This document shows, piece by piece, positions 1,328-59,421 of a stretch of 64,000 bases of DNA. Position 1 is the stretch's first letter; each line of letters starts with the position of its first letter. The stretch covers positions 153,157 to 217,156 of the forward strand of contig JAFGGP010000013.1 in the NCBI GenBank assembly GCA_016930485.1, given 5' to 3'. The translations under genes and the position numbers were made by a program. Origin of the DNA: Candidatus Omnitrophota bacterium. GTDB lineage: Bacteria > Omnitrophota > Gorgyraeia > JAFGGP01. The notes beneath the pieces were generated by a model. The model saw only the letters and a list, made by a program, of their open reading frames with translations, made no database searches and was not told the origin of the DNA.

Positions 1328-2139
1328 ACGATCAACAGGCAAGGCAAGCTGCCGTGGCAGGTCAATTTTACCCGGGCGATAAAAAACGCCTTGACGCCCT
1401 GCTCGCAGGTCTCCTACCACTTCAGGACAAAAAACAAAAAGCGATCGGGGTTATTTCCCCACATGCAGGATATGTCTACTCGGGCAAAGTAGCCGGCAAG
1501 GTGCTATCGCGCGTCTCCCTCCCTGACACACTCATCATCCTGGGGCCAAACCACACCGGATACGGACCCGCTTACAGCATCATGAAAGAGGGGACATGGC
1601 AGACACCCCTTGGTGAAATAGCTGTCGACGCCTCTCTGGCTGAGATGCTTCTGAGTCACTGCCGGCATCTCACCGAAGACCGATCGGCCCATTTCAAAGA
1701 ACATTCTATAGAAGTACAGCTGCCTTTTCTGCAGTATCTTAAAAAAACGTTTACGTTTGTACCGATCGTGCTAGCGACCGGCCCTTTTGCAGATCTGCAG
1801 GCAATCGGCCTCGAACTGGCTCAGGGCATAACCGAGTGCAACCGCGAGGCGCTGATTATTGTTTCGAGCGACATGAATCACTATGAAACTCACCAAACCT
1901 GCGAAAAGAAAGATGCCCTTGCGATAGACGCCATACGCGCACTTGACGCGCAAAGGCTTTTTGAGGTCGTCAGGGACCATAACATTACCATGTGCGGTTA
2001 TGCCCCGACGATCGCCATGATTGAATGCGCAAGACAGCTCGGCGCCACAGAAGGAATCCTCGTTGACTATCAAACGAGTGGCAGCGTCTCAGGGGATTAT
2101 GATTCGGTCGTCGGATACGCAGGAATCATCATTGTGTAA
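1324..2139 (+). CDS. amrB: AmmeMemoRadiSam system protein B (MEMO1 family)
   Basis: 271 aa. AGQFYP and SPHAGYVYSG motifs are typical of the Memo/AmrB family. ATGA overlap with the upstream gene. Confidence 0.8.
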   Translation: MNDQQARQAAVAGQFYPGDKKRLDALLAGLLPLQDKKQKAIGVISPHAGYVYSGKVAGKVLSRVSLPDTLIILGPNHTGYGPAYSIMKEGTWQTPLGEIAVDASLAEMLLSHCRHLTEDRSAHFKEHSIEVQLPFLQYLKKTFTFVPIVLATGPFADLQAIGLELAQGITECNREALIIVSSDMNHYETHQTCEKKDALAIDAIRALDAQRLFEVVRDHNITMCGYAPTIAMIECARQLGATEGILVDYQTSGSVSGDYDSVVGYAGIIIV

Positions 2140-50372: not shown

Positions 50373-50462
50373 AGGTTCTTATTATAACGAAACTCGGCGG
50401 GTAAATCTATAATACTGTTTATAGTATACCAACACGGTGAAATGGTGTGAAAAGGAGGGGTG

Positions 50463-50903
50463 CTATTGCGGAAAGCTCGGGAGCGTAGAAATAGTAAAAT
50501 CGACCCGTACAGCCTCATCTTTTGCTACGGTAATTTCTTTCATCTGCGTCTCGCCTGTCTCACCTTCCTTGACTGCTATTCGATATCTGCCCGGTACAAG
50601 CTGTTTAAACGAGTAATGGCCGTCTTTTACCTTGATGGTCCGGTATGTCAGGCTGGTAACCGGGGTGCCCTGTAAACCCGCTTTTCCCATGCCTCGCAGC
50701 GTTACCATTGCATTAGCAACCGGCCGGCCCTGTGAATTAACCACCATACCCGATATGGAGCATTCGGAGGCATTTTGCACACCTCCTATACTTTGCACCG
50801 GCGTAATCCTTACACTTTCCCCATGCGCCGAAACCGCATAACCGAGGATGCCGAAAAGAACCGCACCTGTGACCAGTATTGTGTCAACCGATTTCATATT
50901 CAT
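50463..50903 (-). CDS. Secreted carboxypeptidase-regulatory-like (Ig-like fold) domain protein
   Basis: 146 aa. Signal peptide. ISGMVVNSQGRPVANAMVTL...DGHYSFKQLVPGRYRIAV, typical of CarboxypepD_reg repeats. Confidence 0.6.
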   Translation of the reverse strand: MNMKSVDTILVTGAVLFGILGYAVSAHGESVRITPVQSIGGVQNASECSISGMVVNSQGRPVANAMVTLRGMGKAGLQGTPVTSLTYRTIKVKDGHYSFKQLVPGRYRIAVKEGETGETQMKEITVAKDEAVRVDFTISTLPSFPQ

Positions 50904-51487
50904 CGAAGCCGTTCCTTGAGCACAAAACCGGATATGGATTGCCTTAATTCATCCAGACTCATGTGCATTACTTCTTCTTTTTTCTGATACAGCTTTCCTG
51001 TCTCAAGGTCATGAAATATAATGCCATCCAGATCCCGTGAAAGCCGATTGGCCGTCCCGGGTTCCTCCTGCGTAATGAGAATCTTCCCCTGCGCCAACCC
51101 CAGGACATGTCGATATCCCTCCGGGTCCTTTCCGGTCAGGAAAAGAACTGCCTCCTCATCGGGCAAAAACGTCAGGCCGTCATATGCATCCTGCTCCTCT
51201 ATATCGATATAGTTATTAATATGGCGTATGGTAAGCTCCTCTGTCCCCAGATGGTTCTTCCAGTACTCATCGACGTGCAATGTTACAAAGGTCTCCACAC
51301 TCGCTACGTATGGATCCCATACATCCCGTTTGGCTATACACCGGGCAAGGACAATACAGTCTGCCCTTAGCGCCAACTCCTCTATTCCCATTTCAATCAT
51401 AGTAAGGCCATAGGCAGTGGGAATAAGACATGTCATAGTTAGCCCTACACAGACAATAATATGATAAAAAAGCTTCTTTAATGTCAT
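50900..51487 (-). CDS. Secreted hypothetical protein
   Basis: The signal peptide MTLKKLFYHIIVCVGLTMTCLIPTAYG begins at the ATG at 51487. The track start at 51559 would read through the G11 tract and the leader terminator. ATGA coupling to the downstream gene. Confidence 0.5.
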   Translation of the reverse strand: MTLKKLFYHIIVCVGLTMTCLIPTAYGLTMIEMGIEELALRADCIVLARCIAKRDVWDPYVASVETFVTLHVDEYWKNHLGTEELTIRHINNYIDIEEQDAYDGLTFLPDEEAVLFLTGKDPEGYRHVLGLAQGKILITQEEPGTANRLSRDLDGIIFHDLETGKLYQKKEEVMHMSLDELRQSISGFVLKERLR

Positions 51488-51492
51488 AAACG

Positions 51493-51503
51493 CCCCCCCC
51501 CCC
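51493..51503 (-). repeat. Homopolymeric G11 tract (C11 on + strand) at the ribosome-binding position
   Basis: Counted directly: 11 consecutive C at 51493-51503, 5 nt upstream of the ATG at 51487 on the minus strand. Confidence 0.95.
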
Positions 51504-51570
51504 GTTATATAAAAGGCCCCATTCCATCTCTGGAAAAAGGCCTCTGTATTTGCTACCATATACTATTCCG

Positions 51571-51700
51571 TTTCGGCAGCCCAGCCTTCCGCCTCCGACA
51601 ATACAGTGTGCACGTTAGCGGAACTGAAACTTTGCTCTCCCCTTTTGCAGGAAAGACCCTTGGAACAGGGGCCCCATTCTTACGAATGGTTTGCCTTTTC
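51571..51700 (-). ncRNA. GEMM-I (c-di-GMP-I)-like riboswitch aptamer candidate, copy B
   Basis: GAAAAGGCAAACC-AUUC-GUAA-GAAU-GGGGC...GCAAAG...GG-CUG-GGCUGCCGAAA. Paralogous to 59221-59330, with compensatory changes in two helices. Confidence 0.5.
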
Positions 51701-51721
51701 GTAACTCTATTTTCTAGTTAA

Positions 51722-51750
51722 AGTATGCCACACATAGTATAAATATGCAA
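51722..51750 (-). promoter_or_regulatory. Promoter candidate TTGCAT-N17-CATACT for leader B
   Basis: Same architecture and the same TGG-CATA context as the promoter of leader A (59393-59421). Confidence 0.45.
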
Positions 51751-58706: not shown

Positions 58707-59156
58707 TCATTTTGGGGGTATATCAGCCTGTGGGAAGGAATGTCTCCGCTGCAGCACCGCAACTGTAACCTCAATGAGACCTTCGTCGAGTTCTGCTATA
58801 TGAGAGAAGGCCTCTTTCGTTAGATCAATCACCCTGCCCTCTTCTACAAAACGGAACGCCGGGCCACGGTCATTGACGCGTACGATAACGGATTTATTAT
58901 TACGGATATTTACTACCTCGACAAGCGTCTGAAAAGGGACGCCCCACATAGCACACGTAAGTTCTTTATCATTAAATAGTTCCATATTTGCGGTCGTTGC
59001 CATGATGCCTGGATCATCACAGGAATACCATGATGAAACACCGTACAGTTCGGCGGCAACGACGTCATGCACTTCATCAACCGTACCCTGTGCAAGGGTG
59101 GCCACCGATAAAAAAACCATTATGAAAATGAATAGTGCAAACAGATGGCGATTCAT
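58707..59156 (-). CDS. RlpA-like double-psi beta-barrel (septal ring lytic transglycosylase family) protein
   Basis: Signal peptide MNRHLFALFIFIMVFLSVATLAQG, then SWY...TANMELFNDKELTCA...VVNIRNNKSVIVRVNDRGP. The track start at 59192 lies inside the leader terminator. Confidence 0.8.
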   Translation of the reverse strand: MNRHLFALFIFIMVFLSVATLAQGTVDEVHDVVAAELYGVSSWYSCDDPGIMATTANMELFNDKELTCAMWGVPFQTLVEVVNIRNNKSVIVRVNDRGPAFRFVEEGRVIDLTKEAFSHIAELDEGLIEVTVAVLQRRHSFPQADIPPK

Positions 59157-59173
59157 GCGGACCTCGCATACAT

Positions 59174-59209
59174 AAAAAAAGCCCTGTTTCATCCATAATG
59201 AAACAGGGC
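59174..59209 (-). terminator. Intrinsic terminator (expression platform of leader A)
   Basis: Perfect 12-bp stem GCCCUGUUUCAU/AUGAAACAGGGC, 5-nt loop, U7. It lies between the aptamer and the RlpA-like start codon. Confidence 0.75.
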
Positions 59210-59220
59210 ACAGACAATAA

Positions 59221-59330
59221 GTGGCAGCCCAACCCTCCTTGTGGAGTCGTGGCTTTGCCTCACCGAATTTCCCGATGAGTCCCGGAGATCAAACCGAGAG
59301 CCCCATCTTTACAGATGGTTTGCCTTTTTC
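59221..59330 (-). ncRNA. GEMM-I (c-di-GMP-I)-like riboswitch aptamer candidate, copy A
   Basis: GAAAAAGGCAAACC-AUCU-GUAA-AGAU-GGGGC...GAGGCAAAGCC-ACGA-CUCC-ACAA-GGAG-GG-UUG-GGCUGCCAC. Compare Vc2 GGCAAACCAUUCGAAAGAGUGGGACGCAAAGCC. Confidence 0.55.
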
Positions 59331-59392
59331 ACAGAATCGAAGCAGGCTGTCAAATAACAAAAGGCACGCACACTTCTTGCGTCCTTACTTTA

Positions 59393-59421
59393 ACTATGCC
59401 ATATAAAAAAAGGAAATGCAA
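59393..59421 (-). promoter_or_regulatory. Promoter candidate TTGCAT-N17-CATAGT for leader A
   Basis: Hexamers read directly from the sequence. Same layout as 51722-51750. Confidence 0.45.

Follow-up and report, generated by a model that had tools for sequence, protein, structure and literature searches.

Which class of RNA does the leader upstream of a pair of minus-strand genes in Candidatus Omnitrophota bacterium belong to, and which signal would it read? The question concerns positions 51488-51750 of a 64,000-nucleotide (nt) stretch of DNA (GenBank assembly GCA_016930485.1, contig JAFGGP010000013.1, positions 153,157 to 217,156), referred to below, in its full length, as the window. An earlier interpretation made from the letters of the DNA (the sequence-only reading) had described this leader as the second of two GEMM-I-like leaders in the window, and this is borne out by matches to the corresponding Rfam clan that span the full model and by the canonical identity of the contact nucleotides. 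Our analysis leads us to consider 51571-51704 (minus strand) the sensor domain of a class-I cyclic di-GMP (c-di-GMP) riboswitch (GEMM-I) provided with a terminator platform, located in the leader at the 5' end of an operon for secreted proteins and belonging to a subtype that carries an insertion, a reading to which we assign a probability of roughly 80%. This leader will be called copy B, and the other one in the window copy A. That c-di-GMP is the ligand of the copy B aptamer is what its membership in the class would predict. The elements of the aptamer are the following:

51571-51704, minus strand: c-di-GMP-I (GEMM-I) aptamer, insertion subtype, complete with both strands of P1 at its ends (Rfam, nhmmer and structure)
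51700-51704, minus strand: P1 5' strand UUACG, pairing with CGAAA at 51571-51575 through four pairs plus an A-A mismatch (placed by the Rfam alignment)
51671-51694, minus strand: first GEMM hairpin (P1 of Weinberg, P1b of Vc2), with a GC base, an AAA loop, the 6-bp stem CCAUUC/GAAUGG and a GUAA tetraloop, then G-G-C
51657-51670, minus strand: insert hairpin H1, CCCU-GUUCCA-AGGG
51636-51656, minus strand: insert hairpin H2, UCUUUCCU-GCAAA-AGGGGAGA
51630-51635, minus strand: GCAAAG, whose GC closes the first hairpin and whose first A (51633) is the equivalent of A47
51576-51631, minus strand: second GEMM hairpin (P2 of Weinberg, P2/P3 of Vc2), with a GG bulge at 51585-51586 (G83 equivalent) and a 25-nt loop, then G-C

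The minus strand of 51488-51750 reads GAAAAGGCAAACC-AUUC-GUAA-GAAU-GGGGC, followed by the hairpins CCCU/AGGG and UCUUUCCU/AGGGGAGA, and its 3' half continues as GCAAAG-UUU-CAG-UUCCGC, the 25-nt loop and GCGGAA-GG-CUG-GGCUGCCGAAA, so that every element quoted in the sequence-only reading was found in its place; the long GG-bulged hairpin ends in GGGCUGCCGAAA. Copy B has the three-helix core typical of the class, with all the nucleotides equivalent to G20, A47, C92, C44 and G83 being canonical: according to the Rfam alignment, G 51695 corresponds to G20 and C 51576 to C92, while the C of the G-G-C element is the C44 equivalent. The roles of G20, A47, C92 and the inter-helix C44-G83 pair have been described for Vc2 (PMC11705072).

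Copy B is a member of Rfam clan CL00126 by sequence and structure. When results were reported by E-value, it scored 29.0 bits against the clan, covering model positions 1-80 of 80 (E = 9e-5 for the local region and 0.0096 for the whole window), and copy A scored 26.7 bits over the full model (E = 3e-4 and 0.043, respectively). The core pattern shared by the two copies, with an insert of 20-50 nt, occurs twice in the window, versus 0.00 occurrences expected in window shuffles. The top-scoring model for both copies was that of the GGC variant, RF03167. This label was discarded as uninformative, since its consensus is GCGAAg and the window sequences have GCAAAG, and since ordinary aptamers with GCAAAG also match this model above threshold, with 63-72 bits.

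The sequence-only reading had proposed building a covariance model from both copies and looking for further members. A collection of genomes was scanned with the pattern AAAGGCAAACC-N8-18-GGGRC-N20-50-GCAAAG, which yielded at least 118 loci among the matches listed. These were of three kinds: chance matches in coding DNA (for example in Helicobacter pylori), canonical GEMM-I aptamers in which GCAAAG happens to occur a second time, and aptamers with a true insert. A covariance model built from the two window copies (R1) was then used in cmsearch over the scan loci, and it separated the insertion-type aptamers (28-78 bits, 120-195 nt) from the canonical ones. At least 36 insertion-type sequences, both window copies included, carry a two-hairpin insert at this exact site. 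The insertion-type loci listed are labeled in the database as Omnitrophota or Omnitrophica in around 27 cases, as 'uncultured Planctomycetia/Planctomycetales' in around six third-party metagenome-assembled genomes (MAGs) and as 'Actinomycetota' in one, these labels being given as deposited; the subtype thus comes mostly from MAGs labeled Omnitrophota among the matches listed. With an nhmmer profile built from 31 relatives only, leaving out the window copies, copy B (E = 2.6e-17) and copy A (E = 5.7e-15) were both recovered from end to end, and nothing else in the window matched this profile. At the positions that were free of the search pattern, the G83 equivalent is G in 35 out of 35 sequences and the C92 equivalent is C in 34 out of 36.

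Insertion-type and canonical aptamers can be found in the same genomes. In two loci (L009 and L011) they lie within 8 kb of each other, and in a third one (L021, positions 1475-1751, minus strand, in the Omnitrophota MAG contig JADFYE010000009.1) a single leader contains an insertion-type aptamer with its terminator, followed by a canonical c-di-GMP-I aptamer (72 bits). As a separate observation, in locus L057 a segment of around 300 nt that contains the aptamer is found at each end of a 5.25-kb contig (1-290 and 4948-5251), the two copies being 91-97% identical and about 4.95 kb apart, which suggests the tandem duplication of a cassette composed of the riboswitch and a pilin-like gene rather than the wrap-around of a circular sequence.

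The most distinctive trait of these RNAs is the insert itself, which in copy B has 35 nt and in copy A 41 nt, is located between GGGGC and GCAAAG, and ranges from 25 to 53 nt across the subtype. It directly follows the C44 equivalent, in the internal loop of the first hairpin, at a point that we take to lie between the equivalents of C44 and G45 in Vc2 numbering. Its presence turns the internal loop into a four-way junction. In an alignment of 40 sequences (A3), 97.8% of the cells form a standard pair, compared to 30-49% when the partners are slid by 1-3 columns, and the covariation score is 0.726 versus 0.19 in shuffles, a value that none of the 500 shuffles reached. P1 was left out of this test, given that its columns align poorly. 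Changes on both sides were observed for all 11 pairs of the insert (4/4 in H1, with 100% of the cells paired, and 7/7 in H2, with 98.3%), and there was covariation in four of the six pairs of the first hairpin stem and in nine of the 11 pairs of the second hairpin. Adding more sequences therefore gave strong support to the compensatory structure that had been proposed from the two copies. The same helices, including H2, were predicted independently by RNAalifold, and inserts folded alone gave exactly two hairpins in 37 out of 37 sequences. H1 and H2 abut directly in nearly all inserts and their loops have no common sequence; H2 meets the closing GC pair without a linker, and H1 comes directly after GGGRC in nearly all sequences. 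The insert had been regarded as a tolerated variable arm. It is indeed present in both window copies with different sequences (37% identity), but the idea of a free, variable element does not hold, because every pair covaries and the insert recurs at this site in at least 36 sequences; it is a conserved two-hairpin module at a fixed position. Since the hairpins abut without linkers and the loops are not conserved, its role is probably that of a structural scaffold forming the four-way junction, and not that of a sequence-specific site.

The compensatory changes between the two copies, taken in the sequence-only reading as evidence for a real structured RNA class, are real, but they do not point to a new class, given that Rfam models already match these RNAs. 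On the basis of its sequence, the insertion-type aptamer can be considered a structural subtype of the known c-di-GMP-I class rather than a new riboswitch class. Copy B is a new member of a well-known class, within a subtype apparently not described before: in the open-access literature we found no publication on an inserted or four-way-junction variant of c-di-GMP-I, nor on GEMM-I in Omnitrophota, an absence that is not in itself a proof.

Some facts count against this assignment. Copies B and A, with 29.0 and 26.7 bits, stay below every Rfam gathering score (35 bits for RF01051 and 59 bits for RF03167), and although the cmsearch, suggested with RF01051 and run with the clan models, gave matches to both copies, none of these passes the threshold; when gathering thresholds are applied, a tRNA is the sole match in the window. 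The alignment A3 was fitted to a model derived from the window copies, which biases the pair counts, a problem mitigated by the results of RNAalifold, nhmmer and the folding of inserts alone. Finally, the equivalents of G20, A47 and C44 and the GCAAAG block were fixed in the relatives by the search pattern, so their constancy there is uninformative. Regarding the first point, the Rfam alignments lose score where 43 or 58 nt within the first hairpin remain unaligned, and this insert penalty entirely explains the low score of copy B. Several insertion-type relatives (L067, L014, L078, L113, L086, L006, L112, L069 and L040) do pass the RF01051 threshold, with 36.5-40.8 bits, which means that database practice already counts such RNAs as c-di-GMP-I.

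The remaining elements of the copy B leader are arranged around the aptamer as follows:

51722-51750, minus strand: promoter-like TTGCAT-N14-TGG-CATACT (candidate -35 and extended -10), shared with copy A at 59393-59421
51552-51557, minus strand: GGUAGC, possible alternative partner of the aptamer 3' strand GCUGCC (51574-51579); it forms a 6-bp hairpin in unconstrained minimum free energy (MFE) folds and its role would be that of a competitor
51507-51542, minus strand: intrinsic terminator GGCCUUUUUCCA-GAGA-UGGAAUGGGGCC followed by UUUUAUAU (predicted folds, -15.9 kcal/mol)
51493-51503, minus strand: run of 11 G, the sole Shine-Dalgarno-like element before the ATG at 51487, a function suggested by its sequence

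Promoter-like motif, aptamer, terminator and ATG thus follow each other in this order on one strand, within 265 nt. The TTGCAT motif in a TGG context that had been noticed ahead of both copies was confirmed, TTGCAT-N14-TGGCATA(C/G)T being found in exact form only at 51722-51750 and 59393-59421 in the window. It would act as a promoter, with 7 of 12 positions coinciding with the sigma-70 consensus; this is too weak for it to appear in the list of the consensus scan, which shows instead TTGATG-16-TATACT at 51763-51736. The weaker downstream hairpin with a U tract that had been described is present at 51542-51507, its stem (51542-51515) being located 30 nt downstream of the aptamer, and the U-U mismatch that interrupts this stem made the strict terminator scan miss it. 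With respect to the run of 11 G between the terminator and the ATG, such a homopolymer could be prone to slippage or be an assembly artefact.

The elements of copy A are:

59219-59333, minus strand: aptamer of the same subtype, with a 41-nt two-hairpin insert (Rfam; nhmmer)
59181-59209, minus strand: terminator
58707-59156, minus strand: downstream gene, encoding a secreted DPBB_1/RlpA-like protein

The cores of copies A and B are 76% identical and the overall identity is 58%. As had been pointed out, the first hairpin swaps two base pairs between the copies, from U-A and C-G to C-G and U-A, and the copies do not differ in the GG bulge or in the GGGCUGCC block. The covariation proposed for the helix CAG/CUG versus CGA/UUG is accurate in part: the change from G-C to A-U is compensatory, but that from A-U to G-U is one-sided and the third pair does not change. 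Another compensatory change, from U-A to C-G, was found in the second hairpin when the copies were compared, together with several one-sided changes. The two copies had been called paralogous, and there are certainly two of them in the window, but they are not especially close, since a sequence from another genome (L006) is nearer to copy B in the core. In copy A there are around 60 nt (59334-59392) between the candidate -10 element and the aptamer, and within this segment the terminator scan lists a small hairpin, T-rich at its tail (59366-59382).

With the aptamer and the terminator defined, the next question is in which direction the switch would work. We lean slightly towards copy B being an OFF switch, in which c-di-GMP promotes termination, based on the complementarity between the terminator 5' strand and the 5' core of the aptamer. 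In this model, binding of c-di-GMP, the ligand expected from the class, would lock P1 and the junction, and the terminator at 51542-51507 would be the expression platform. Without ligand, the aptamer 3' strand GCUGCC would be captured by GGUAGC (51557-51552), and the freed 5' core GAAAAGGC could pair with the terminator 5' strand GCCUUUUU, thereby blocking the terminator and allowing read-through. In the presence of c-di-GMP the core would be occupied, the terminator could form and transcription would stop ahead of gene 1, the first gene of the operon. The GCCUUUUU:GAAAAGGC duplex of copy B has a predicted energy of -10.2 kcal/mol (z = -2.4 against composition-preserving shuffles), and that between the terminator 5' strand and the 5' core in copy A, -9.4 kcal/mol (z = -1.5). 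A 13-bp match in L087 gives -13.4 kcal/mol (z = -3.3), duplexes in L030, L067 and L041 have z values below -2.2, and in L021, L069 and L078 the terminator 5' strand pairs instead with the P1 3' tail. Taken together, 20 leaders average z = -0.72 (uncorrected p = 0.02). Pairings with the 5' core or with the P1 3' tail would be antiterminators that the ligand would dissolve, which corresponds to an OFF logic.

This preference has to be balanced with a number of observations that count against it. The terminator forms in the MFE fold with or without the aptamer being enforced, so that equilibrium folding does not decide the direction; in nearest-neighbour folding the full aptamer lies 14-16 kcal/mol above the MFE fold, a gap that is usual for junction-rich aptamers relying on ligand and tertiary contacts. 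The complementarity of the terminator 5' strand to the whole aptamer was not significant (mean z = -0.19), and signals, weak ones, came only from the tests targeted at the 5' core and the 3' tail. These statistics use hand-curated terminator 5' strands and uncorrected p-values. Surface proteins are commonly switched on by c-di-GMP, and the opposite, ON design is clearly used by L112, L052 and the canonical copies of L009 and L011. According to these predicted pairings, the subtype would use both ON and OFF designs.

An ON switch with the same aptamer and ligand, in which c-di-GMP would suppress termination or open the ribosome-binding site, so that high c-di-GMP would lead to synthesis of the secreted proteins, is accordingly a possible alternative for copy B, albeit a rather doubtful one. 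In the leaders just mentioned the 3' strand of the aptamer itself serves as the terminator 5' strand, which is the classical ON arrangement, and an overlap between terminator and aptamer has been reported in 78 of 322 GEMM RNAs (Weinberg 2007, PMC1950547). The existence of GGUAGC as a competing partner for the 3' strand of the copy B aptamer and the fact that the regulated genes encode surface or secreted proteins would also fit an ON switch. However, the GCUGCC:GGUAGC hairpin of copy B has no U tract, the true terminator lies apart from the aptamer and appears in enforced as well as in free folds, and we found no element in copy B through which ligand binding would selectively break up the terminator. 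The probability that is left after considering OFF and ON corresponds to effects on translation or stability, or to no switching at this terminator.

A further pairing was considered and set aside. The 10-nt sequence GAAUGGGGCC appears twice on the minus strand, at 51671-51680 (in the aptamer, as the P2 3' strand plus GGGGC) and at 51515-51524 (in the terminator 3' strand), and the terminator 5' strand could also pair with the aptamer copy (-13.2 kcal/mol), as seen in the fold of a truncated transcript. For this copy to work as an antiterminator a stable local hairpin would have to be opened, and there is no counterpart in the relatives; the repeat may be due to chance.

The coexistence of insertion-type and canonical aptamers in the same genomes, and in tandem in L021, hints at a functional differentiation between them. 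The insert, whose four-way junction lies beside the C44-G83 contact and the ligand pocket, could then be a functional addition, defining a second kind of c-di-GMP-I sensor in Omnitrophota with other affinity, kinetics or specificity, or allowing a protein or another RNA to dock, which from the sequences at hand we regard as unlikely. It is more improbable still that the insert, or another trait of the RNA, has shifted its specificity from c-di-GMP to another nucleotide signal, for example pGpG or a cyclic dinucleotide such as 3'3'-cGAMP. The insert adjoins the C44 contact and is two nucleotides away from A47, the formal best Rfam model is the variant RF03167, and both types of aptamer coexist even in one leader. 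Nevertheless, the A47 position is occupied by A and not by the G of GCGAAg, the RF03167 model does not discriminate between these RNAs and canonical relatives, as indicated above, the equivalents of C92 and G83 show conservation in the subtype as a whole, and the G20 equivalent is G, a position where the cGAMP-selective GEMM-Ib RNAs have A. As for copy B being a decayed or chance GEMM-like sequence devoid of regulatory function, its score under the Rfam threshold and the orphan nature of gene 1 leave this a very small probability, in view of the intact core and contact nucleotides, an architecture identical to that of around 35 other sequences with pervasive compensatory change, the full explanation of the low score by the insert penalty, and the expected succession of promoter-like motif, terminator and start codon.

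The genes downstream of copy B are:

50900-51487, minus strand: gene 1, 195 aa, with a signal-peptide-like N-terminus (open reading frame and Pfam search)
50463-50903, minus strand: gene 2, 146 aa, CarboxypepD_reg (PF13620, E = 5e-13), with a hydrophobic N-terminus

They agree with the secreted hypothetical gene followed by a CarboxypepD_reg-like gene that had been noted. Gene 1 matches no Pfam family, and a search among 5.8 billion proteins returned the protein itself and no homologue. In the NCBI annotation this gene (JW844_02435, 100% identical) encodes 219 aa starting at an ATG at 51559, that is, within the expression platform and through the terminator; the ATG at 51487 is the likelier start, judging from the 195-aa product, which opens with a signal-peptide-like sequence. 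The start of gene 2 overlaps the stop of gene 1 by 4 nt (ATGA), and a two-gene operon, as proposed, is likely, but its end is not defined: no terminator was found after gene 2, and a promoter-like TTCACA-17-TGgTATACT (10/12, with TG) is located at 50423-50451 (minus strand), between gene 2 and a DUF362 gene. The -10 form of this site, TGG(C/T)ATA(C/G)T, resembles that in both riboswitch leaders. In the relatives, the first downstream genes encode mostly proteins with signal peptides, including pilin-like proteins, PilM, PilZ, two response regulators and proteases, as well as beta-helix, fn3 and PKD proteins and two more CarboxypepD_reg proteins, a context that matches the 'environment, membrane, motility' regulon of the c-di-GMP-I class.

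Both leaders of the window are invisible to standard annotation based on Rfam thresholds, and this is probably also the case for many other leaders in Omnitrophota, an uncultured phylum with very small cells, little being understood of how they live. A model aware of the subtype would recover a c-di-GMP regulon comprising pilins, proteases, adhesin-like and secreted proteins. The gene 1 model of NCBI even extends across the expression platform. Besides, a large insert that is tolerated and conserved beside a tertiary contact essential in Vc2 represents a natural experiment on the stabilisation of the c-di-GMP-I fold.

The cGAMP-responsive GEMM-Ib riboswitches of Geobacter have the same overall fold and clan as the window copies, and carry A at position 20; this position is G in both window copies and in all the relatives recovered, where it was fixed by the search pattern. 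The c-di-GMP-I-GGC family (RF03167) shares the clan with the two copies, and the first G of its linker (GCGAAg) is absent from the GCAAAG of the window. The closest known system is GEMM-I (RF01051), with Vc2 of Vibrio cholerae as archetype, defined by two hairpins joined by an AAA linker, the first with a GNRA loop and with stems of 2 bp and 6 bp on either side of a 3-nt internal loop that is highly conserved, and often by a terminator as well (PMC1950547). Copy B has in common with it the 2-bp and 6-bp first hairpin (GC/GC and CCAUUC/GAAUGG) with a GNRA loop (GUAA), the AAA linker including A47 (GC-AAA-G), the G20 and C92 contacts, AAAGGCAAACC, the second hairpin with its bulged G, here part of a GG bulge where the C44-G83 contact is predicted, the YRCC 3' block, the short P1, the 5' regulatory position with an expression platform and the genes for surface or secreted proteins downstream. 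Its score remains under the gathering threshold of 35 bits, which some relatives with the same insert exceed. The simple 3-nt internal loop is the sole architectural departure from the features of Weinberg: its 5' side is the canonical AAA, whereas the 3' side consists of G-G-C plus the 35-nt insert. A parallel for such an addition can be found in the 5S rRNA of Halococcus morrhuae, in which a lineage-specific helix insertion is described as accommodated by a four-way junction (PMC7530397). There, too, an extra helical domain is placed at a junction or loop and the core is unchanged, in a different RNA with a different function, so that the likeness is one of analogy only.

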